From: a virus
Taxonomy: Duplodnaviria > Heunggongvirae > Uroviricota > Caudoviricetes
Strand: one strand, 5' to 3'
IMG/VR virus record: IMGVR_UViG_3300038443_000757
Location: 84,614 to 148,613 of that record
Length of the DNA stretch: 64,000 nt
The number at the start of each line of letters is the position of its first letter. Position 1 is the stretch's first letter. This document shows positions 1,616 to 43,386 of the stretch, one piece after another. Position numbers and translations under genes: made by a program. Under the pieces are notes generated by a model that saw only the letters and a list, made by a program, of their open reading frames with translations, made no database searches and was not told the DNA's origin.

Positions 1616-3373
1616 CTATACGTAAATGTAGTCTTTCATAAGAATCTCTGACGACGATAAGCCCAGCCCAAGTCTTGGATGACTAGCGGGGTCAAATGTT
1701 AGTTGACCACCTGTAACACCAGCACCACCCGTCAGGTAATAGTAAGCTTGCCCGGGCTTAATCCCTGTTAGGCCGGATATTAAACCTCTCATGTACACGC
1801 GTCCGTCAGTAGGATGATAATAGCCAATGACAGATGGCGTTGATGTATTGACATAATACTCTTGACACATCAAGTCAGTTCTAAAAGCCTTAGTTGTTAC
1901 AGCCCCAGTAGTGAATACATAGTTAATGATATATACAATATTTCCGATAACCACGCTTCTAGGTGTATATGATGTGGCTGTTTCTTGCCCCGCGATTGAT
2001 CTGAAGCCCATGTTAGCTATGAATCCTGTACCAGCCGCATTGAAACCTATCACAGCCCCCCAGAGAACCGTCCCGCCGCTGACTGGAACTACGAAGATTA
2101 CGAATTGATTTGTAGCTACATCGAACGTAATGTTATGTGCGTTCTGCGACAGAGAAGTAGTCAAATTTGCGCCAAATTGTGCATCACCTCTCGTATACGT
2201 TCCAGTATTGGGGTCTACCCTCCAAGCAGCAATATCGTAGTTGTAACTTGTGGATGCTGGCGTGAACCCTACAGCGATGTAGTGATAGCCATCACTTCCT
2301 ACGTAATGAAATGGCCTACTTACTAGGGTGTAGTTAGTATTGTAGTTACTTAAGAAAGTAGCTGTTTGCATATTGGTTACGGTTGATATTGTTGTACCAG
2401 AAATGCTGAGGCTGGTACTGATAATCTGATACTGTGTAGCTGAGTTACACAAGATAATCAACGCTTTTGTAGCACCTATCGCGATAGCATTCATCCTAAT
2501 AAATGTCCCCGAGGCTGAACCAAAGGAACCAGCAGATGGCGTAAATGTAGCTCCAGCAGAAGGTACATTACCCGCAGTTGTAATCACATTCGAGGTGATA
2601 TTAAGCGTTTGAGTCGAAAGTTGGTAAACAACTATAGCCTTGTCTGTTGTCAGTTGATCTATACTGATATCACCTGTGCATACTGTGGCCGTGACGGTTA
2701 GGTCTGTACCTACAGTTACCGTAGAACCCGATACAGAGAATGCGATAACATGAGGGTAGTTTGTGGAGTTATCAATATAAGCCAGCGCAAACTTACCTGC
2801 GGCCATAAGGCATAGGTCAAAGTTGTTACCTACATTGGTTCCTAACGCATAAACTGTGCCCACAGTAATGGTTGTTCCTGAGATAGTAAGGACAACGGCT
2901 CTAGCTTGTGTACCGTTTGCAAATACCAACAAGGCGTGCGTGGAATCCAACAAGCGCAAGTAATTGTTCTCAGGTCTAGTAACCGTTGGTAGGTAGAATG
3001 TTGAAGACCAGACAACCACCTCTGTACCCATACCAGAACTTGTAGTCGTAGGTGTCAGTATCGATGCCCTTATTACTGGTGTTCCTGAGTTTGCTAGGAT
3101 CATCAAAACATTGCCGTTAGGCAGAGCCAAGGTCATAACATCGGTACTACTGTTAACTAAGCCAGATGTGCCCGCAGACTTGGTTTGGAATCCGTCAATG
3201 CCGTATACGGTATCTGCGGCAAGATCGCCTATATACTCCGATCCGTACAAACCCACTACGTTACCGGGAGTACAAGAGTATACAGGGTGAGGCTGATATA
3301 CCCTTGAAACGTCTTGCGTATTTCCTCCCCCGCCGCCTTCCTCTGCCGCAATTAATGTAAAAATGTCACTCAT
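1616..3373 (-). CDS. putative receptor-binding/tail-tip protein, beta-rich
   Basis: 585 aa Thr/Ser/Gly-rich with repeated beta-strand units (TISGTTITVGT, SVSGSTVTVGT); follows tail fibre gene. Confidence 0.55.
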   Translation of the reverse strand: MSDIFTLIAAEEGGGGGNTQDVSRVYQPHPVYSCTPGNVVGLYGSEYIGDLAADTVYGIDGFQTKSAGTSGLVNSSTDVMTLALPNGNVLMILANSGTPVIRASILTPTTTSSGMGTEVVVWSSTFYLPTVTRPENNYLRLLDSTHALLVFANGTQARAVVLTISGTTITVGTVYALGTNVGNNFDLCLMAAGKFALAYIDNSTNYPHVIAFSVSGSTVTVGTDLTVTATVCTGDISIDQLTTDKAIVVYQLSTQTLNITSNVITTAGNVPSAGATFTPSAGSFGSASGTFIRMNAIAIGATKALIILCNSATQYQIISTSLSISGTTISTVTNMQTATFLSNYNTNYTLVSRPFHYVGSDGYHYIAVGFTPASTSYNYDIAAWRVDPNTGTYTRGDAQFGANLTTSLSQNAHNITFDVATNQFVIFVVPVSGGTVLWGAVIGFNAAGTGFIANMGFRSIAGQETATSYTPRSVVIGNIVYIINYVFTTGAVTTKAFRTDLMCQEYYVNTSTPSVIGYYHPTDGRVYMRGLISGLTGIKPGQAYYYLTGGAGVTGGQLTFDPASHPRLGLGLSSSEILMKDYIYV

Positions 3374-3385
3374 ATATTATCCTCC

Positions 3386-6300
3386 TTATGATACTGTTTT
3401 TGTGATGCTAGTTACTTTGCTTGTAGTCGCATCACGATTTACCGTATATGTGACTGTTGACCCGCCAGCTACTTGTGTAAAGCTCGAAATAAGTCCCGTC
3501 GTCGCGTCGCGGGTAATTGTAGATGTGACAATCGTAGTGCCGCCATCCTTCTCCGTAACTGAACTAATCTTGCCTGTTGTCGCGTCGCGGGTAATGTTGA
3601 TTGATCGCGTATCAGTTTCAAGAACCGCGCCAATTTGCTTGATTACGGATGTATTATCTGCCCCAAGTCCAGCAGTTTTAAGCAAATACTGAGTGTGCGG
3701 ATCGCCTGTAGAATTGTGATTGCCAGAGTGAAGGATTTGGCTGAAGTTCGTGCCGCCATTCTCACTGATCCTCCACTGATTCAATGTATAATCCCAATAG
3801 AGCAAACCTTTATTCACCGTGTTGTCTTGCGTTTGAATTCCAGCAAAGATTCCAGAGCCACCACTTGCACGATTCATTATAAAACGCGGGGAGTCCATCG
3901 TGAGGGTTGTTGATCCCGTCATCGTGCCGCCAGTTTTAAGCAGATATTGACTATGTGGATCACCAGTGGAGTTATGATTTCCTGCATGATGGACAATATT
4001 TCCGAGATATGTTAATCCATCATTAGCCGTTCCTGCCGCTACAGCCAGTGACCAACGGGCATTAGTGTTGTCATAGACACCCCATCTCCCAGTTGACGGC
4101 TGAGCACCAATGAACCATAATCCTGTTCCAGCACTATTCTCAATCCGCTGTCCGAGGATGGCAGTATCTGTATCCACAAGTGGTCGGAAGAAGAACGATG
4201 CGGCGCTCTTTGTGATTCGTAAATCACCAGTCATTGTGCCACCAGTCTTCAACAAGTACTGCGTATGAGGATCGCCCGTTGAGTTATGGTTTCCTGTGTG
4301 GTGGAGTTTGTAGCCTGAACCCGCTTGGTAGTAGTACAAGTCATTTGCTCCGCCAGCAAGTACTTGAAGATAGTTAGTAGTGGTCTTAACCGCACTTGCG
4401 TCCGTTGCGTAGAAGTAAATAGGACGGGAAGAACTGTTCGCACCGTCGTTGAAGGAATTCATAATGATTCGAGAGTCCATTGTCAGATCGCCCGTCATAC
4501 CCGTCCCAGTCTTGAGCATATATTGAGTGTGCGGATCGCCTGTACTATTATGATTTCCTGCATGATGAACGATGTTTCCTAAGTATTTCAAGCCACTGGT
4601 TGGGGAATTTGCATCTATCACCAATGCAAATCTATTGTTCACAGTATCGAATACACCCCACAAACCAGAAGAAGGTTGATGACCAACATTCCATATCGCA
4701 GTCCCAGCCGTATTCTCATATTGATTACCCTGAATAGATGCGTTTGTATCCACATCTGGTCTGGTAATGAACTTTGCACTGCCCTTCGTGATTCGTAGAT
4801 CACCAGTCATCGTGCCTCCAGATTTGAGCAATAATGTAGAAGTGGCTGTTTGCACGAATGCTGTAGTAGCAATTTGAGTTGTATTTGTTCCTCCAGTAGC
4901 AGTTGGCGCTGTAGGTGTTCCTGTAAAAGCAGGAGAAATCAACAAATTAACAACATCATCTATTGTTCCAGATGAGTTTCTCTTTACAATTTGATTAGCA
5001 CCAGTCCCTACATTTAATGCAATTGTTGGATTTTGAACAGTTCCACCAACAATAACATCAGAACTACCAGCAGTTACAGAAACTACAGTTCCTGCACCAT
5101 CATTACCTTTTAAAGCAACCAGATTCCAGAATTGAGTATTAGTTGGTAGATTGCCAAGAGTTTGAACAGTACAAATATATGATGATCCTTGATAACTAAC
5201 AACATCTCTAACATTATATGTTATAGAGCCGCTATAACTCCCTTGCCATGTAAAGCTTGTTCCAGTTGAACCTTGAATTCCTTGAATTCCTTGATCACCT
5301 TTATCTCCCTTGTCACCTTTTGAAACTATTAACTTCCAATATGTAGTATTGGTTGGATCAATATTGGTGCATGCCAAAATATTCATATAGCCTGAACCTT
5401 GATATTGAACTACGTTATTGGGAACGTATGCAGTAGCTGAGTTGTAATCACCTTTATTAACTAAGCCATCTGCTTTAGTTTGTGCATTGGTTGCCGCAGT
5501 ATTTGCCGCATCTCTTGCAGTGTTAGCCTGCGTAGCCGCAGTATTTGCCGCATCTCTAGCTGTATTTGCTTGAGTCGTAGCAGTGTTTGCATTTGAAGTA
5601 GCAGTATCAGCATTTGTTTTGGCAGTATTAGCCGCAGTTGCCGCAGTATTAGCTGAATCTCTTGCAGTGTTTGCCTGAGTTGTGGCTGTATTGGCATTAG
5701 TTGTAGCAGTTACAGCATTGTCAACAACAGTTTGAACACTAATTATTTTAGTCCAATATGTAGTATTAGTTAATGGTTGATTTGTATTTGCATCTTTAAT
5801 TGAAATATACATATTATAATTACTTGCATCTGTTACAAAATCACCAGTTATATATGTTGTTGCAGTAGAATATGTTCCTTGCCATGACATGTACCCAAGT
5901 CGTTTCCAATTCGTTGTATTTGTTGGAATAACATTTGTAGATGATACTATATTAATATAGGCAACGCCATTATAAAAAACAATATTCTTAGGTATGTAAG
6001 CGGTTGCAGAACTGTAAATACCTTTGTAAGAAAATGCATCTCCAGAAGACTTAGCATAATCACCCTGAGTTTTAGCATAGTCTCCCTGTGTTTGAGCGTA
6101 AGTTGCTTTAGTATTGGCATTTGTTGCCGCTGTATTAGCACTATCAGTAGCCGCATTTGCATCATTTATAGTTTCACCCAATAAGTCCAGAGCCTGAATT
6201 GCCTCATTCCCACTGTCAATAATATCCTGAAGAGATGTAATTACATCTGGATTATCAGTATGGGAGTAAATTCTTTCTGCTGGATACAAAATCATTCCCT

Positions 6301-23420: not shown

Positions 23421-24428
23421 TTAAGACAGCGTGTAAACACCATAAGCATTGTTGAATTGTACAGCCAAACCATACATCGTTTGGAACGTGTATTCCATGC
23501 TTTGATCCATGTTCTTGCTACCGTCAGAGTTTTCTTGGATGATAGATTGACCTTCACGAACAACTTTAACAGGCTTGCTGTTAGAAGGAAGTACGAAGAG
23601 TTTAGTATCATCAAGAGCAAACGTGAACGTGTTAGGCAGATGAACTTGTTGCAGTTCAAGCAAAGGAATACCATTATAGACATTCAGAAGTCCGCTTTGG
23701 TTGATTTGGTCTTTCATGTTCTCACTCACCAAGAAGGATTGCGAAGAGTAAGCACCGTTGATTTTCTTCAGAGCGTTACGAGTACCAGCAACTACCAGTG
23801 GAGCGTAGTTGTTTGCTACAGATACGTGCTGAACCAGATCATCAAGGTTAACGTCCGTGAAAGAACCAGTTTTCTTGAATTCAGCAGGCAGATATGTAGT
23901 AGCACCAATAAAAGCGTTCATAATGTCAGTGTACATTTGCAGACGCATAGCTTCGTCGATTTTACGAACCAGACCAGCCCAGTCTACGCGACCAGCAAGG
24001 AAACGCAGGAAATCAGTGTAAACCTTAGCACCATACCACGAAGTAGTAACGCTGAAGCTATCACCAATATTCAGTTTTTGTCTACGAAGATCATAGTGAC
24101 CGCCAGCAATTTTGCTGATTGTCAGAACAGAACGATCTTCTACGTAGAATTCATTCTTGTCGCCAAGATTAAGATCACGATATTCAACGAATTGTTCGAA
24201 GAATGGGCTTTGCGTAACGCCACTTGTAATCAGATTGTCAAGAGCAACTTCCATGATTTCAAAAATTTCATTTTTAAACTTACGGAACGTGCGGAAATCA
24301 GGCTTGTCAGTACCCATCAGTTCAACAAACTCTTTACGGATAGATTCCGAAGCTTGATGAGCAGAGAAATTAAGTACATTGCCTTTTACAGTATCAATAG
24401 CCAATTTAATAAGAGCAGCTTTTTCCAT
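23421..24428 (-). CDS. major capsid protein
   Basis: 335 aa, FVEYRDLNLGDKNEF, strongest high-expression codon bias, position after decoration gene. Confidence 0.9.
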   Translation of the reverse strand: MEKAALIKLAIDTVKGNVLNFSAHQASESIRKEFVELMGTDKPDFRTFRKFKNEIFEIMEVALDNLITSGVTQSPFFEQFVEYRDLNLGDKNEFYVEDRSVLTISKIAGGHYDLRRQKLNIGDSFSVTTSWYGAKVYTDFLRFLAGRVDWAGLVRKIDEAMRLQMYTDIMNAFIGATTYLPAEFKKTGSFTDVNLDDLVQHVSVANNYAPLVVAGTRNALKKINGAYSSQSFLVSENMKDQINQSGLLNVYNGIPLLELQQVHLPNTFTFALDDTKLFVLPSNSKPVKVVREGQSIIQENSDGSKNMDQSMEYTFQTMYGLAVQFNNAYGVYTLS

Positions 24429-34866: not shown

Positions 34867-35079
34867 TTAAAGCCAACTAAAGAATTCTCTTGGGAGACTG
34901 TTTTGAATTTTAACAATCATATCAAGCAATTCTCTTTTTGTTTTTACATGATCTGGTGGACAACTTTCAAAATCCTCTTGCAGTTGCAAAAGTGCTCGAA
35001 TATTAAAATCATAAAAATCAGGGAACTCAAATCTCTTTTTCCAATCTTCAAACTTTTTATCAACATTACTCATACGCAC
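34867..35079 (-). CDS. hypothetical protein
   Basis: 70-aa ORF. Confidence 0.5.
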   Translation of the reverse strand: MRMSNVDKKFEDWKKRFEFPDFYDFNIRALLQLQEDFESCPPDHVKTKRELLDMIVKIQNSLPREFFSWL

Positions 35080-35111
35080 TCACACTCTCTAATTTATTCT
35101 TATATTTGTAT

Positions 35112-35185
35112 TGGAGCGGACGACGAATCACGATATCGTATCCTTCGGGTGGAAGCCGAAGATTTTTCCTTTAAACTACGTCCGC
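35112..35185 (-). tRNA. tRNA-Gly(TCC) with atypical T-loop
   Basis: GCGGACG/CGTCCGC, TTCGG-CTTCCAC-CCGAA, U73, CCA; T-loop ATCGTGA. Confidence 0.8.
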
Positions 35186-35186
35186 A

Positions 35187-35262
35187 TGGTAGTGACGGCT
35201 TGATTTGAACAAGCGACCCCCTGTGTATCAGACAGGCATTCTCACCACTGAACTACGTCACT
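35187..35262 (-). tRNA. tRNA-Ile(GAT)
   Basis: full cloverleaf; CCTGT-CTGATAC-ACAGG; CCA. Confidence 0.93.
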
Positions 35263-35265
35263 ATT

Positions 35266-35343
35266 TGGTTGCTACGTGCTGGTAACGCTCCAGCTTAATC
35301 AGGCTTATGAAGCCAAACGAGATACTTACCTCTACCACCAGCT
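35266..35343 (-). pseudogene. degenerate tRNA-Met(CAT)-like
   Basis: TTCATAA loop, GCTGG/CCAGC T-stem, terminal CCA; acceptor stem largely unpaired. Confidence 0.45.
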
Positions 35344-35351
35344 ATATTTTG

Positions 35352-35442
35352 TGGTCATGGCTAGAATTGCACTAGCAATGGACTTGATCATCGTCCACCC
35401 TCATTACGCGAGGGCGCGTCTTCTATTTCCGCCACATGAACC
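35352..35442 (-). tRNA. tRNA-Tyr(GTA)-like, non-canonical
   Basis: CCCTC-GCGTAAT-GAGGG (C at 33), long variable arm, bulged acceptor, no encoded CCA. Confidence 0.6.
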
Positions 35443-35451
35443 ATATAAAAA

Positions 35452-35730
35452 TCATTTAAACTTTGAATTACACATCGTAGGAAGCAAAACATGATTACGA
35501 ATTTCCTGATTCGCTTCAGATGAAAACATAATGTCAAATCTATACCCTCTTACAAGTTGATTTGATCTTCTAAATATTCTTACATCATATAAATCAGATT
35601 CAATCCTTACACAATTATACTCATTTCTACTTTTGGTAATTCCACCTGAATTTTGCAACATTTCAGTAAAGAAATTTACATACATATTGTACTCAAATTC
35701 ATTTGTAGCAAATGCACCAATCTTAGTCAT
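35452..35730 (-). CDS. hypothetical protein
   Basis: 92-aa ORF with RBS. Confidence 0.55.
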   Translation of the reverse strand: MTKIGAFATNEFEYNMYVNFFTEMLQNSGGITKSRNEYNCVRIESDLYDVRIFRRSNQLVRGYRFDIMFSSEANQEIRNHVLLPTMCNSKFK

Positions 35731-35742
35731 AACTTCACCTTC

Positions 35743-35940
35743 TTATTTTCTAATGCTAACTCTTCTTAGTTCTCCGAATATCTTATTATAGATTCTGCCA
35801 TACCATCTTGGCCTGAACATCAGCAAGTAAGGAATAAGCATCACATATGAAAGAATCCAGAGTGGAATATAAATCATAGCAATAAGTAGCATTTCATACC
35901 ATTTGAAATCAAAACTTATGAACAACATAATTCCACTCAC
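35743..35940 (-). CDS. small membrane protein
   Basis: hydrophobic 65 aa; shares MF(R/K)PRW motif with 39575..39778. Confidence 0.5.
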   Translation of the reverse strand: MSGIMLFISFDFKWYEMLLIAMIYIPLWILSYVMLIPYLLMFRPRWYGRIYNKIFGELRRVSIRK

Positions 35941-35951
35941 CTAATTTCATT

Positions 35952-37703
35952 TTATTTAGCATCTAACGTTCCTCTTGTAATCCAATCCCCATAAGTTGCA
36001 CAAAATGCATCAATCGTTATAGAATCACTTGTTGTAAGAACTGTTGACTTAGAAGCATAGAAACTCACCTTAATTTGAGTACCAGTAAAAGTCTCTGGAA
36101 CAATGAATCTGTAAGTGTAGATTGAATTTAAAGGATCAGAAATATCAAGTGGATTCAATGTTGCAAGAACTATATTATTCACATCAGTAACTTCAACTGT
36201 ACGATCAGGCAATCCAGAAGTTCTATAGTTTGCCGCCAAGTAGATTGGCGCTCCCTTTAACGAAGAACTCACTGTAAATGTGTAAGTCACCTTATTACCA
36301 AGAATAGAACCATTAACTGTTTCAGCAGGTGCAATATTCTCATACAACTGTTCAAGCTTTCCAAATCGTCTAATTCCATTTACTTTACCACCGAATACAA
36401 GACCTTCTTGCAAACCGCCAGCTAAAATAGTAATTGAAGCATTGACAGTATTGTAAATAGTAAGATTTTCTGGAATAGTCTTAACAGTTATGTCACCACT
36501 ATTTTGTGCTGTAATCTTTCCACTGTACATTGCAAGATCAATAATATCATCACTCAAATGATCAAATGAACCTTCAGTTTCGATAGTTGTTGCTAATGCT
36601 ACAGAAGGAGTTGCACAATAGATAAGACTATCAGTATAGCCATTTCCATCTCCATAACTATTTCCCTTGAACGAAAACTTACGTTCTGCACTTGTAGGAG
36701 AATTAACATTCTCAAGACAAATAACATATTTAGGAGCAATTGGCGCTGATCCACCATCACTAATAGCACCTTTGATAAAGTGATTATTGTTAATTTGGAT
36801 ATTTCCTTGCTGATCTCCACAAACTTGAATGCAACCTTTGTAAGATTCTCCCAAACTCAATGTACTTCCACCAGAAGTTTGAAGACCACCACAACGACTA
36901 AATGTGTTCTCATTAATAGAAAGATCATGATTCTGTTGTTTCAATTGAACTCCAACGCCTGAAACTCTATCAAACCAATTTCCTTTAATCATATTGTTAT
37001 CACAACCATACAAGGAAATAGCTGAGTCTCTGTCGATCCATTCAAACCTATTATTTAAAATTCTATTTGCTCTTGCTTGGACAAGATCAAAGCCTTTGTT
37101 TCCAACAAAGATATTATCATTCCATTCGCAATCTACTAAACGTCCTTGAAAAACTGTTTTATTAACTGTATCTCCACTGTTGTTATAAACTGTAAATGCA
37201 CACTTTCTAAAATGAAAGTTTTGACACATTTCAGTTGAACCAGATGGAGCATTGAGAACCACCATATTCTTAAACGAACAATCCTCAATGTCAAAGCTTC
37301 TACAATCACCTGAAATAACAAGACGAGTAAAACCTGTGAAAGAAAGATTTCTCAACGAAACATGATAACCTTGACTTGGTTTGTCAAACAGTTCACTTGT
37401 ATAATCACCAACTAAAACTGATCCACCTTTAGAGAATACATCACCGTAACTTGCACCACTCCAGTAGTGCTTTACTGTTGATCCTCCAATAAATGTAATA
37501 TTATCATAGTTAGTAAGTTTACCACGAATAAGCCATTCGCCTTCAGGAATATAAATGATTTTACATGACGTTGAATTTTGCGCTATATTTATTACTCTTT
37601 GAATGATACTTGTGTTATCAAAATCAATTTGTTGCCATCTTGGGATAGCTCCAAAATCTGCAATATTTAATGCATTATTAATCATATTAATCACTATAAA
37701 CAT
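35952..37703 (-). CDS. right-handed beta-helix (pectate lyase 3-like) protein
   Basis: N..DFGA..., D.T..IQ..IN, IYIPEGEW N-motif; Asn-ladder repeats. Confidence 0.8.
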   Translation of the reverse strand: MFIVINMINNALNIADFGAIPRWQQIDFDNTSIIQRVINIAQNSTSCKIIYIPEGEWLIRGKLTNYDNITFIGGSTVKHYWSGASYGDVFSKGGSVLVGDYTSELFDKPSQGYHVSLRNLSFTGFTRLVISGDCRSFDIEDCSFKNMVVLNAPSGSTEMCQNFHFRKCAFTVYNNSGDTVNKTVFQGRLVDCEWNDNIFVGNKGFDLVQARANRILNNRFEWIDRDSAISLYGCDNNMIKGNWFDRVSGVGVQLKQQNHDLSINENTFSRCGGLQTSGGSTLSLGESYKGCIQVCGDQQGNIQINNNHFIKGAISDGGSAPIAPKYVICLENVNSPTSAERKFSFKGNSYGDGNGYTDSLIYCATPSVALATTIETEGSFDHLSDDIIDLAMYSGKITAQNSGDITVKTIPENLTIYNTVNASITILAGGLQEGLVFGGKVNGIRRFGKLEQLYENIAPAETVNGSILGNKVTYTFTVSSSLKGAPIYLAANYRTSGLPDRTVEVTDVNNIVLATLNPLDISDPLNSIYTYRFIVPETFTGTQIKVSFYASKSTVLTTSDSITIDAFCATYGDWITRGTLDAK

Positions 37704-37739: not shown

Positions 37740-37985
37740 TTATTTTGACTGCTTTTCGATTGAAACCCATGTTCCACTTGTATTGCCAATCAGTGCATGA
37801 GCATTTTCTAAGGACTTCTTAAACGATCTTGCATCTTCTTCTTGAATGAAAGCTTGATAGCAAATTCTAGTCTCTCCATGAAATTCTCCAATTCTTTTGC
37901 TCCAAGATACAACCCAAACATCAGTTACTTCTACTTCTTTTGTTTCATTTGTCGGAATAGAAATAGTTTTTCTTTTAAAGAACAT
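37740..37985 (-). CDS. hypothetical protein
   Basis: 81-aa ORF with RBS. Confidence 0.55.
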   Translation of the reverse strand: MFFKRKTISIPTNETKEVEVTDVWVVSWSKRIGEFHGETRICYQAFIQEEDARSFKKSLENAHALIGNTSGTWVSIEKQSK

Positions 37986-38038
37986 TGAATCATTCTCCGT
38001 TCAATAGTTTTTTATTTGGCTAACAGGCTATATTATAA

Positions 38039-38112
38039 TGGTGCCCTCTACTGTAATCGAAACAGTGACTACGGGTTACAAAGCCGTTGTTTTACCACTA
38101 AACTAAAAGGGC
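38039..38112 (-). tRNA. tRNA-Thr(TGT)
   Basis: GCCCTTT/AGAGGGC, TTTGTAA loop, CCA; C31-C39 mismatch. Confidence 0.88.
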
Positions 38113-38115
38113 ATT

Positions 38116-38209
38116 TGGGGCGTATGACGAGGTACGATCTCGCAAAGGGTCAACAAACCCTTACAGGATTCACATTCCTGCGTGTACTTCCAATCCCACC
38201 ACACACGCC
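38116..38209 (-). tRNA. tRNA-His(GTG) with G-1:C73 and an unusual long variable arm
   Basis: G(-1)GCGTGTG/CATACGC-C-CCA; CAGGA-ATGTGAA-TCCTG; AAGGG/CCCTT extra arm; T-loop ATCGTAC. Confidence 0.75.
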
Positions 38210-38244
38210 ATAAAAACAACTTTTTATAGTTTAATAAAGTTAAT

Positions 38245-38680
38245 AAAAATCATTTCCTGCCATGACAGCCCTTTATAAACTGGAAAGGACAAGTCATAAC
38301 AACCTATGAAATTAAACAAGGGATTTTATCGAATGGGCGTGATACCCAATGTATCACTAAGCCCTGATATTTAAGACTTCAACGTTGACTCATGTGAATT
38401 CTGAGTCGTAAACTTTAAGGTTTGATCTCTGAGCTTTGAGCTTTATATCACATTTTTAATTATCCCCAATGGATTAATACTCTGCACGAGTTATCAAATA
38501 GTTCCTTTAACAGAACAACCTAAAAGTTGTAAATTTAACGTAATTTACGAAACGTATGAAGTTCTCCAGTTTTCGTCATGTCAGGAAATATCAATTATTT
38601 ATTTGCACCTTGCGGGACGCGCCAAGTCATCTTATTCTTATTGCAATAGGGAAGATGACTAGAAACCTAGAGACCTATTT
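38245..38680 (-). ncRNA. candidate large structured ncRNA (~440 nt)
   Basis: 14/15-bp long-range stem 38252-38266/38575-38589, nested 8-bp stem, at least 6 hairpins, heptamer-periodic tract 38396-38444. Confidence 0.7.
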
Positions 38681-38684
38681 GACA

Positions 38685-39311
38685 TTAACCGCTAATTTCA
38701 ATGTCTGTGCGCGTATTACTCTCACTCAGAAGAAAGTCAGCTTCTTTGTCAAATTCTTCAATCTGCTCAGTAAGTTTATCAATTGTCTTTTTCAGATCAA
38801 TTGGATCAATAAACTTAACTTCATTGTCAAGATTGAATCCTTTCGTAATTTCTTCTACGGAAGCTTCTTTGCCCTTAGTTTCTTTGCCAAGAGCATTCTC
38901 AATACGCTTCTCAAGAGCTTGTTTTGCCTTCTCTTGTTCACGTGCGAGAACTTGAAGTGTCGTAGTGTACTGAGTACGCATCATGTTCAAAGCTTGACGA
39001 TCATGAACAATTGAATTTTTACGTTCAATTACCTCTGCCACACTCATAACTTTTCCACTAGGGAAAGTTACCTGAGTGATTGCATTAGATGCAATGATTG
39101 CAGATTTAATCTCAGCACGACGAGCGATCAAGTCTCTGATAGATGCAAGAGATGCTTCAGCATTCTTTGCAAAATTTTCAGGAGAAATATGACCACCAAT
39201 TGGTTTAGAACCAACTTGAATACTTACGAATGCCGCTTCGCTAATTGCACGATTAATTCTAGCCTCAAGTACTCCCAATTCCGACAATGCTCTGTGTACG
39301 CTCAATTTCAT
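38685..39311 (-). CDS. conserved coiled-coil protein of unknown function
   Basis: 208 aa; HRALSEL..L..RI, SVAEVIE.K, DF.LSESN motifs; high-expression codons; own promoter. Confidence 0.85.
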   Translation of the reverse strand: MKLSVHRALSELGVLEARINRAISEAAFVSIQVGSKPIGGHISPENFAKNAEASLASIRDLIARRAEIKSAIIASNAITQVTFPSGKVMSVAEVIERKNSIVHDRQALNMMRTQYTTTLQVLAREQEKAKQALEKRIENALGKETKGKEASVEEITKGFNLDNEVKFIDPIDLKKTIDKLTEQIEEFDKEADFLLSESNTRTDIEISG

Positions 39312-39405
39312 TAATAAATCTCTCCCTTTTCATCTTTGATATTTAAATTTGATTAGTAAATATAATTCATTTTTTATTACATCTGTTATTTTCGACTGTT
39401 TTCAT

Positions 39406-39434
39406 ATTATACCATTTTATCAGCCACTTGTCAA
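39406..39434 (-). promoter_or_regulatory. sigmaA-type promoter of coiled-coil/ncRNA/tRNA unit
   Basis: TTGACA-17-TATAAT with TG extension. Confidence 0.8.
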
Positions 39435-39461
39435 CAACTATTTTTCAAGATCGATTTTTAT

Positions 39462-39547
39462 TGGCGAGGGTGGGAGGATTCAAGCCCCTTAACAATGGTT
39501 TTGGAGACCATCTGCGCTCTCTGGCGACATTTAAGTTTCCTACCCCC
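39462..39547 (-). tRNA. tRNA-Trp(CCA)-like with enlarged D region
   Basis: ATGGT-CTCCAAA-ACCAT, G73-CCA, ~29 nt between acceptor and anticodon arms. Confidence 0.5.
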
Positions 39548-39574
39548 AAGCATGCGAGCGTTCCGCTCTAGGTA

Positions 39575-39778
39575 TTATCTTCTCTTCCTATCAATCTTAA
39601 AGAACAACATGTTTTGATTGAAATACTTCTTAATCAATCTAGCAGACCATCTTGGTTTAAACATTATCCAGTGTGGAAGAGTAATTATTTGACAAAAAAT
39701 CATGAAAACAAGTATCATTACTATAAACAAAAAGTTGCTCCAACCACTATCTCCATCAAAAAGTCCCATACTCATCAC
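39575..39778 (-). CDS. small membrane protein
   Basis: hydrophobic 67 aa. Confidence 0.5.
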   Translation of the reverse strand: MMSMGLFDGDSGWSNFLFIVMILVFMIFCQIITLPHWIMFKPRWSARLIKKYFNQNMLFFKIDRKRR

Positions 39779-42126: not shown

Positions 42127-43386
42127 TTATAGTAGTTCAGCCAAAGAAGCTGTTTCACTGCGCTCTGTCTTGTCAAGAATTACTTGACCATATAATGGAT
42201 TGCCCTTAAGTTTAGTAAGCGTCAAGATGCCACTGTTATGTCTGAATACATCTTTATCAGTCTGTTTTAAGTCTCCATTGAACCAAATTTGAGAGCCTTC
42301 ACCTACACGACTAATAAGAAGTTTTACATGTTCTGAAGTATTGTTTTGAACTTCTGTAACGTAGATGATCGAATTTTTAATATCTCGTCCACGAATACGT
42401 GTCAGGTCTTGAAGTTCAACAACTCCAGAATCAACCATAAGTCTAAGCTGATCAACGCCACCAACAGCGTCTGCTAGAGGCATAGCAAACTCAATCATTT
42501 TATCAAAATTATCACCTTTACGGAATCCAGACTCTGGAGCATCCTTTAATGGTACTTGATTTCGTACAAAGACAATCTTATCAATTACTCTACTTTCAAG
42601 CATTGCAATAGCATGTGAAATCATACAGAAATCTTTTCCTGATCCAAAAACTCCGAAACAAGCTTTGACAGTTATACTCCTGTCTTGCAACATATTAAAT
42701 AGAAGTTGTTGTTTTAAATTTCTAGGCTTTGTTTTCCCCATGTGTCTACTTGAGACTTCCTTGAATTTTACAGGGACATACATTTCACCATTCCACTTAT
42801 ACTTTGCCTTATCAATATATTCTCCACCTGTATTCTTAAACATGATATATTCATTTTCATATAGTTCATACATATTTTCATTGAGATTAGAATAGAAATC
42901 ATTAAGCTCTTCTTCGTCTGCTTCGATTTCCATAACACCTGAATACATTGTTTCATAAGTTTCTTTGCCATCATCACTAAGACCAAATGTAATGTATGGA
43001 ATGTTATATCCTTTACATTTCTCAATTACGAGTTGATCATTGCTAATGACTCCATAATCATTCTCTACTGCGGCTTGAATGATAAGATTATCAACATAAC
43101 TTCCATCTTGAGTAGCATTAAGTGTCCATTTGTAATCCTTGAGATCACGTGTAATCTTTGCCTCATTTTCTGGATCAGCTAGATATCTTACTGCTTCACG
43201 TGCCTGATATGCCAATGTATTAATTTCAGACTCATTAGAAACTCTACTTTTCTTAGACTTAAATACATCCAATTCTCTATAGACATGGGAAAGTGCTACA
43301 ATATCATAATCTTTAATTTCTTCTAAGTTATTTAGAAATACATTTGTATCCACAATATACTTAATGGTTTTTACTTCCTCTTCCAT
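42127..43386 (-). CDS. phoH: PIN-domain PhoH-like ATPase
   Basis: YIVDTNVFL PIN motif; G.FGSGKD Walker A; IRGRDI, VTEVQN, LISRVGEGS, NGD..Q. Confidence 0.9.
   Translation of the reverse strand: MEEEVKTIKYIVDTNVFLNNLEEIKDYDIVALSHVYRELDVFKSKKSRVSNESEINTLAYQAREAVRYLADPENEAKITRDLKDYKWTLNATQDGSYVDNLIIQAAVENDYGVISNDQLVIEKCKGYNIPYITFGLSDDGKETYETMYSGVMEIEADEEELNDFYSNLNENMYELYENEYIMFKNTGGEYIDKAKYKWNGEMYVPVKFKEVSSRHMGKTKPRNLKQQLLFNMLQDRSITVKACFGVFGSGKDFCMISHAIAMLESRVIDKIVFVRNQVPLKDAPESGFRKGDNFDKMIEFAMPLADAVGGVDQLRLMVDSGVVELQDLTRIRGRDIKNSIIYVTEVQNNTSEHVKLLISRVGEGSQIWFNGDLKQTDKDVFRHNSGILTLTKLKGNPLYGQVILDKTERSETASLAELL

Follow-up and report, generated by a model that had tools for sequence, protein, structure and literature searches.

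A conserved pseudoknotted RNA that accompanies the gene of a helical protein in phage genomes

The stretch of DNA analysed here (the window) comprises 64,000 nucleotides (nt) of a complete 169,219-bp (base pair) virus record of the Caudoviricetes, IMGVR_UViG_3300038443_000757, and the locus in question lies on its minus strand between positions 38,245 and 39,434, where the gene of a helical protein of 208 amino acids (aa) is followed by an RNA of 340 nt. Comparison with related loci establishes that this RNA is structured and that it is obligately paired with the protein gene. As judged from alignments and pair counts, the RNA is a conserved family with a terminal helix P1 and a pseudoknot of helices P2 and P3 around the invariant elements CGAAAAC, UUCGAUAAAAU and GGCUG, and by the profile searches reported below RNA and protein both fall outside every catalogued RNA and protein family. 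The pair looks like a widespread two-part phage module. A dedicated system of a protein and a structured RNA outside Rfam had been proposed from the letters of the window before any database was consulted (the sequence-only reading), and covariation, linkage in both directions and the absence of an Rfam match bear this proposal out.

The RNA starts 95 nt past the stop codon of the 208-aa gene in the window, and its parts are given here in the order of the transcript, together with the leader that precedes them.

38608-38660, minus strand: leader specific to this lineage, outside the conserved RNA, with two hairpins, one of 9 bp (38625-38660) and one with a GCAA loop (38608-38615).
38251-38590, minus strand: conserved structured RNA, whole extent, 340 nt (profile, alignment of relatives, pair counts).
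38575-38590, minus strand: 5′ strand of P1, ending at the C of the conserved junction CGAAAAC (38569-38575) (covariation).
38563-38572, minus strand: 5′ strand of P2, AAACUGGAGA (alignment of relatives, pair counts).
38529-38555, minus strand: probable H-type pseudoknot, S1 ACGU (38552-38555) with ACGU (38538-38541), S2 GUAAAUU (38542-38548) with AAUUUAC (38529-38535).
38462-38529, minus strand: variable region with local hairpins, differing in length and sequence between clades.
38396-38444, minus strand: seven heptamers in tandem (AAAGUUC as family consensus), with the phase more or less resumed past a 9-nt unit.
38387-38407, minus strand: hairpin GACUCA/UGAGUC, overlapping the end of the heptamer tract (pairing kept with changes in close relatives, by eye).
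38334-38365, minus strand: stem GGGC/GCCC around the hairpin GUGAUAC/GUAUCAC (four pairs, nearly invariant in nine close relatives).
38323-38333, minus strand: UUCGAUAAAAU, the unpaired stretch with the highest conservation, identical or almost so in most of the family.
38318-38322, minus strand: 5′ strand of P3, CCCUU (pair counts).
38286-38305, minus strand: hairpin P3a (AGG...CCU) within the loop of P3 (compensatory changes in relatives, alignment columns 349-352 with 365-368).
38277-38286, minus strand: 3′ strand of P2, UUUCCAGUUU, within the loop of P3 (alignment of relatives, pair counts).
38266-38273, minus strand: 3′ strand of P3, AAGGG (38269-38273), overlapping the conserved GGCUG (38266-38270).
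38251-38266, minus strand: 3′ strand of P1 (covariation).

P1 measures 16 bp in the window and closes the whole RNA, and P2 and P3 constitute a pseudoknot because the 3′ strand of P2 lies within the loop of P3. The hairpin P3a amounts to 3 bp only in the window copy. Across the family the RNA is 235-394 nt long, and the 3′ domain from UUCGAUAAAAU to GGCUG has a near-constant length of 53-58 nt. The sequence-only reading had described an ornate RNA of about 440 nt; the RNA is real, but its conserved length is about 340 nt. The 9-bp hairpin and the GCAA hairpin that were counted among its parts exist as well, but they belong to the 95-nt leader upstream of P1 and not to the conserved RNA, this leader being absent from the relatives, in which P1 usually starts 4-60 nt past the stop codon. 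The stem GGGC/GCCC with its inner GTGATAC/GTATCAC and the hairpin GACTCA/TGAGTC from the same reading are present and kept in close relatives. In one locus (L046) a tRNA-like structure was found by ARAGORN within the variable region, about 95-169 nt past the stop codon, which suggests that the variable domain can take inserts.

The fold of the window RNA as a single sequence has a z score of -3.4 relative to shuffles. In eight metagenomic relatives the proteins are 50-62% identical and the non-coding stretch downstream is 70-80% identical, and RNAalifold on these eight sequences and the window yielded 40 pairs, of which 22 show compensatory double changes, in a structure that includes a 15-bp terminal P1 and a 9-bp P2. 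The RNA downstream of the homologous genes is conserved and covarying, and two pairings that had been picked out from the window alone correspond to helices of this structure: the 15-nt long-range pair with 14 of 15 positions matched is P1, with strong covariation, and the nested pair AAACTGGA/TCCAGTTT is P2, which also covaries. With a profile alignment of 46 sequences the structure was recovered by RNAalifold only in part, because this alignment is not structure-aware, and it was replaced by pair counting anchored on CGAAAAC, past the 5′ strand of P1, and on GGCUG, before its 3′ strand. As counted in 46 profile-anchored distinct sequences with 42 different strand sequences, 95.8% of the P1 cells were paired in register, while sliding the register by 1-3 nt reduced pairing to 32-55%, and in a strand-swap control 7.7 of 14 positions paired between sequences versus 13.2 of 14 within a sequence. 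P3 is a 5-bp helix of CC-NNN with the NNN-GG of GGCUG, and its two variable columns contain no broken pairs in 54 sequences and show 27 and 34 double changes. P2 was found in a single fixed register in about 38 of 60 sequences and is made of many different sequences. The copy in T5 has a P1 of 18 bp and a P3 of 6 bp. G·U cells numbered 68 and A·C cells 7, indicating that the strand co-transcribed with the protein gene, and not duplex DNA, is under selection. The S2 helix of the H-type pseudoknot varies in sequence from T5 to Bacillus phages with complementarity kept (semi-quantitative, by eye), and this helix set is considered probable. For the repeat tract, a lag of 7 or 14 was the best in 51 of 60 distinct family members.

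Linkage of RNA and gene was investigated in 80 diverse IMG/VR loci obtained via the protein alignment and in eight loci from named phages. The alignment-based scan was required, as a single-sequence scan of IMG/VR with the window protein gave no relatives, and near-identity DNA searches of the phage collection gave no close relative of the source phage. Of 97 loci, 94 contained the RNA according to an iterated nhmmer profile, each time immediately 3′ of the gene and in the same orientation, and the profile matched nothing else in 461 kb, the rest of the window included. Two of the three loci missed by the profile show P1 by eye, and the element occurs once in the whole 169,219-bp record. The linked pair was found in T5 and in phages of Bacillus, Clostridium, Lactococcus, Vibrio, Pseudomonas and Klebsiella; the setting of Firmicute phages in which the sequence-only reading had placed such RNAs was hence too narrow, the module being carried by T5-like, Vibrio, Pseudomonas and Klebsiella phages also. 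Inversely, when only the 3′ core motif was searched for in IMG/VR, 43 hits resulted, 28 of which have the gene upstream. The protein gene was present upstream of every hit with intact P1 and P3 (28 of 28). Twelve hits with enough upstream DNA but no gene are also without P1 and P3 and are taken as chance matches, as expected of an 18-base pattern, and no orphan RNA was seen among the 43 hits. Neighbouring genes other than the pair itself are not conserved across the phages inspected.

The protein matches phrog_1491 from end to end (3e-60). Searches of Pfam (E up to 1), NCBIfam and the sequences of the PDB with the protein gave nothing above noise, and the ESM Atlas returned 'hypothetical protein' clusters only. 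A profile search collected 3300 clusters at 50% identity, nearly all of 205-217 aa, and tblastn detected the protein in 727 deposited phage genomes with hosts or names covering Salmonella, Escherichia (T5 included), Pseudomonas, Vibrio, Bacillus (phage G included), Klebsiella, Erwinia, Lactococcus and Clostridium phage D-1873, identity across distant phages being about 30%. The AlphaFold2 model is confident, with a predicted local distance difference test (pLDDT) of 91, and depicts a long helical bundle with a small sheet at one tip, formed jointly by both termini and a beta hairpin (residues 80-90); the most conserved motifs of the protein are also located there. A prediction with four copies gave a symmetric homodimer with an interaction score from aligned errors (ipSAE) of 0.53 relative to 0.00 for the best control, a partner pLDDT of at least 82 and at least 90% of contacts shared between runs. 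Of the solved homo-pairs, 20 out of 30 attained the mark for a dimer, and of the single chains 1 out of 23; these counts hold only roughly for four copies and a custom alignment. These predictions support a homodimeric protein.

Structural searches with Foldseek (PDB, BFVD and AFDB) and VIA wide returned uncharacterised relatives, PDB 3kdq and generic helical bundles (BAR domains, Xax/ClyA-type toxins and ESCRT-III), and no function was read from these bundles. The best structural neighbour was 3kdq, with a VIA Z of 11.3 over 151 residues where the next rows have 7.7, a Foldseek probability of 1.0 (E 0.0035), a root-mean-square deviation of 7.3 Å and an identity of 14-16%. Its fold is like that of the protein model with no match at the sequence level, and no function was transferred because 3kdq is itself uncharacterised. 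The statement of the sequence-only reading that proteins of this kind are often labelled septicolysin finds a weak likeness in fold, in 3kdq and in one AFDB cluster named Septicolysin (E 0.085, weak), but no match in sequence. The label 'tail fiber' of phrog_1491 found no support, since the modelled fold, a helical bundle capped by a small beta sheet, has neither fibre nor beta-helix architecture, and since the gene stands among tRNA and early-region genes in every phage inspected and never in the tail module. With a profile match as strong as 3e-60 the assignment to the family is sound, and the doubt concerns its label alone. The T5 record AY692264 annotates neither the conserved 207-aa gene (35306-35929) nor the RNA region of about 350 nt (about 34940-35287, same strand as the gene), and a 265-aa antisense open reading frame (ORF), T5p083 (35159-35956; 2974-3771 of locus L014), is annotated over the gene.

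The signals around the gene and the RNA in the window are the following.

39406-39434, minus strand: sigma-70 consensus promoter with extended -10 (TTGACA, 17 nt, TG-n-TATAAT; 12 of 12 matches, TG present).
39322-39328, minus strand: Shine-Dalgarno sequence AAGGGAG, 10 nt 5′ of the ATG (read from the sequence).
38685-39311, minus strand: gene of the 208-aa helical protein (phrog_1491; without Pfam or NCBIfam family; ORF list, profile match, AlphaFold2 model).
38116-38208, minus strand: tRNA-His, 93 nt, with a long extra arm (ARAGORN; 42 nt past P1).

Promoter-like sites in the region as a whole show no excess over shuffles, and the promoter call therefore rests on the perfect match and the position. 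Codon usage of the 208-aa gene is capsid-like and fits a high expression: arginine is encoded by CGT in 8 of 12 cases relative to 17% across the ORFs of the window, ATA is used in 0 of 21 and TTA in 0 of 16 cases, and the same bias is seen in a 335-aa ORF of the structural block (23421-24428). About 475 nt after the stop codon (38209-38684, minus strand) contain no credible ORF, even with TAG or TAA read as sense, and neither a promoter nor a terminator was found between gene and RNA in the window. The consensus promoter, the high-expression codons and the lack of a credible minus-strand coding sequence in about 470 nt, all proposed at the outset, are in this way retained. P1 opens so close to the stop codon in most loci, and only 4-20 nt past it in many, that there is no room for a separate RNA promoter, and we infer that gene and RNA are co-transcribed from the promoter at 39406-39434. 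A tRNA-like stretch directly 5′ of this promoter (39466-39547, minus strand) has 19 bits and an E of 1.4 with the tRNA-Sec model and was not called by ARAGORN; the module therefore sits within a cluster of partly aberrant tRNA genes.

At the other end, the 42 nt between the RNA and tRNA-His agree with the distance of about 40 nt given by the sequence-only reading. Adjacency of a tRNA is frequent but not universal, as a tRNA lies within 120 nt of the RNA in 21 of 60 loci, and within 17 nt in 11 of these. An intrinsic terminator follows the RNA in other loci, such as those of Vibrio, Pseudomonas, Lactococcus and Bastille-like phages, and it is probably either RNase P or termination that generates the 3′ end of the RNA. 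The literature searches yielded no report of a transcript from this locus. In the window tRNA-His is followed by tRNA-Thr, and the 93-nt tRNA-His has no match to the tRNA model of Rfam even at E up to 10. In relatives the corresponding position is occupied by a tRNA-His of 72-93 nt, and similarly long copies (85-90 nt) stand directly after the RNA in L006, L008, L010, L012, L013 and L084; the oddity of this tRNA is thus conserved in the clade. Suppressor-type tRNAs with CUA (amber) and UUA (ochre) anticodons were found downstream of the RNA in L004, L006, L009, L010 and L011, which hints at stop-codon recoding in these phages, and no CUA or UUA suppressor tRNA is present in the window.

The most economical reading, and a rather probable one, is that protein and RNA form a co-transcribed particle. 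The locus would be a two-gene module of an abundant, dimeric and all-helical 208-aa protein and a highly structured RNA of about 340 nt, both expressed as one transcription unit from the strong promoter at 39406-39434. The 3′ end would be set by RNase P cutting of the next tRNA, or by an intrinsic terminator in phages without an adjacent tRNA, and in the window a cut at the 5′ end of tRNA-His would trim the transcript close to the 3′ end of the RNA. The protein would bind the RNA in a stable particle in which the pseudoknotted core serves as the specific docking site and the phased heptamers give one register per protomer or dimer. As a guess made with low confidence, this particle might intervene in translation, or in the RNA metabolism of host or phage, at an early stage of infection by large tRNA-carrying phages. 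A wider version is possible but doubtful, namely an ancient phage ribonucleoprotein common to T5-like, Bastille-like, Tsamsa-like, Felix-like and jumbo phages, with dimers loaded in phase on the 7-nt repeats of a pseudoknot-locked scaffold and with a task in host takeover or counter-defence that is tied to RNA or tRNA metabolism.

Six observations pull in the opposite direction. The adjacency of gene and RNA is by itself no proof of binding. The predicted oligomer is a dimer, neither a ring nor a filament, and lends no direct support to one protomer per heptamer. GC-rich members alter the sequence of the heptamer (e.g. CAGGACU and GCAAGGA) and keep the period alone. P2 is absent from the standard register in about one third of the sequences, and an automatic search for the H-type pseudoknot scored barely above shuffles (12.05 relative to 10.97). 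In locus L009 a 169-aa ORF (3711-4220, no Pfam match), which may be a mobile gene, is inserted between gene and RNA, so that direct contiguity is not required.

The same insertion enters into two other explanations. It is unlikely that the RNA works alone, for instance as an RNA-only assembly like ROOL or GOLLD, with the protein gene as a neighbour in the same highly expressed unit. Large ornate phage RNAs beside tRNA genes are known to form assemblies without protein (10.1101/2024.12.08.627333), the core of the RNA studied here is elaborate enough for self-folding, and gene and RNA are split by the inserted ORF of L009. Pairing is however near-obligate both ways across proteins of about 30% identity, which is far tighter than operon hitch-hiking, and is not shared by the other neighbouring genes. 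No likelier is a cis-acting 3′ untranslated element of the protein mRNA, either a stabiliser or an autoregulatory binding site, instead of a free RNA. The position of P1 at 4-20 nt past the stop codon in many loci, the fact that no internal promoter was seen and the codon bias of a protein apparently made in large amounts are what such an element would display. Its 340 nt, two pseudoknots, invariant junctions and repeat tract are on the other hand far beyond the needs of known 3′ stabilisers, its form is kept in L009 although the inserted ORF detaches the gene, and a tRNA often abuts the RNA, the processing of which would free the 3′ side.

A pair of the type III toxin-antitoxin kind, in which the repeat-bearing RNA would neutralise the protein, is most improbable. 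Phages carry pseudo-ToxI repeats, and the protein gene adjoins an RNA with tandem repeats, but the repeat unit has 7 nt where type III antitoxins have about 36 nt, the RNA stands after the gene and not before it, the helical bundle of the protein matches no endoribonuclease fold, and the repeats are held within one large closed fold and not in a processed array. That there is no RNA gene, and that the stretch instead encodes a protein in a hidden or recoded frame or acts at the level of DNA, for example as an iteron origin, is hardly credible at all, for although close relatives have CUA and UUA suppressor tRNAs and the tandem repeats are iteron-like, every frame remains interrupted even if TAG or TAA is translated, long-range compensatory pairing and strand-specific G·U (68 versus 7) are an RNA signature, and a 7-bp period does not fit the helical repeat of DNA.

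The protein family that would make up one half of the proposed particle is carried by the model phage T5 and by many therapeutic Salmonella, E. coli, Klebsiella and Pseudomonas phages, where it is currently annotated as 'hypothetical' or, wrongly, as 'tail fiber'. Large pseudoknotted RNAs that have an obligate protein partner are few, and the RNA described here would be among them. As T5 carries the module, knock-outs, Northern blots, pull-downs and cryo-electron microscopy are possible at once in E. coli. If the particle is real, a new phage ribonucleoprotein would join the short list of large structured RNAs (OLE, ROOL, GOLLD and raiA) and could bring to light a new level of the conflict between phage and host. 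A model of the RNA would in any case mend the annotation of hundreds of phage genomes that have small spurious ORFs over it.

Some further features were observed around the module. Upstream of it lie an HU gene and the gene of a PhoH-like protein that bears a PIN domain at its N-terminus (42127-43386 of the window, minus strand), as is the case in a clade of Bacillus, Clostridium and gut phages (L001 and L004-L013), and these genes are placed outside the conserved pair because they are absent in T5, Vibrio and Pseudomonas phages. Other RNAs with Rfam families also cluster at such loci: in Brevibacillus phage Jenst (L003) a skipping-rope RNA fills the gap between stop codon and P1 (3625-3702) and a BsrG-like RNA is found at 4160-4434, and in Clostridium phage D-1873 (L001) a drum RNA is located downstream of the module (4398-4505).

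Rfam 15, in which ROOL, GOLLD, OLE, tmRNA, RNase P, 6S and Y RNA were among the families looked for, gave only tRNAs in the window at the gathering threshold. The region 37900-39700 at E up to 10 gave chance-level rows only, none above 21 bits, and the element had no match in 14 further RNA-bearing loci. No published description of the protein-RNA pair was found in the literature. Long non-coding RNAs have been reported beside tRNAs in phage K (PMC9241854); they were rejected as relatives, as there is no match to the RNA profile and no homologue of the protein there. An RNase P-like or T-loop-mimic role was considered for the conserved T-loop-like pentamers UUCGA and UUCAA and rejected, as GC-rich members lose these but keep the 7-nt period.

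ROOL (RF03087) and GOLLD (RF01998) resemble the RNA described here in being large and intricate RNAs of phages and prophages that often lie beside tRNA genes. Their function is uncharacterised, they are abundantly transcribed, and they assemble without protein. The present RNA differs in a length of about 340 nt relative to about 580-800 nt, in its tract of 7-nt repeats and in its obligate partner, the protein gene. The smpB-ssrA pair (SmpB and tmRNA) likewise has a small protein gene followed by an end-paired RNA of about 350 nt with several pseudoknots and a processing like that of tRNA precursors. The module lacks however a tRNA-like domain, a 3′ CCA and a tag reading frame, and its protein is a helical bundle and not the SmpB barrel; no tmRNA was detected by ARAGORN in the window and no CCA follows P1. 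The gene of Rsr (Ro60) is also followed by its cognate RNA, Y RNA or YrlA, closed by a terminal stem, and occurs in some phages near tRNAs, but the protein studied here is without Ro60/TROVE or vWA features and its RNA is larger, with no match to Y RNA in Rfam.

OLE RNA, also large and ornate, functions in a particle together with its own proteins OapA, OapB and OapC, whose families are otherwise uncharacterised. It is a bacterial RNA of about 600 nt with membrane proteins in anaerobic Firmicutes, whereas the present RNA has no match to it and no transmembrane partner. The sites of HutP have a 7-nt period, and those of HutP and TRAP are NAG triplets at a fixed spacing. They share with the heptamer tract the phasing of short purine motifs, which in their case gives one register per subunit of an oligomeric RNA-binding protein, but they are short leader sites bound by beta-rich rings, and the tract described here is enclosed in a large fold, its putative partner being a predicted dimer of helical protein. 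As compared with ROOL and GOLLD, smpB-ssrA, rsr-Y RNA, and HutP and TRAP, the module displays the defining features of none of these systems; its RNA has the context of the first, its gene order is that of smpB-ssrA and rsr-Y RNA, and its phased purines are like those of HutP and TRAP.

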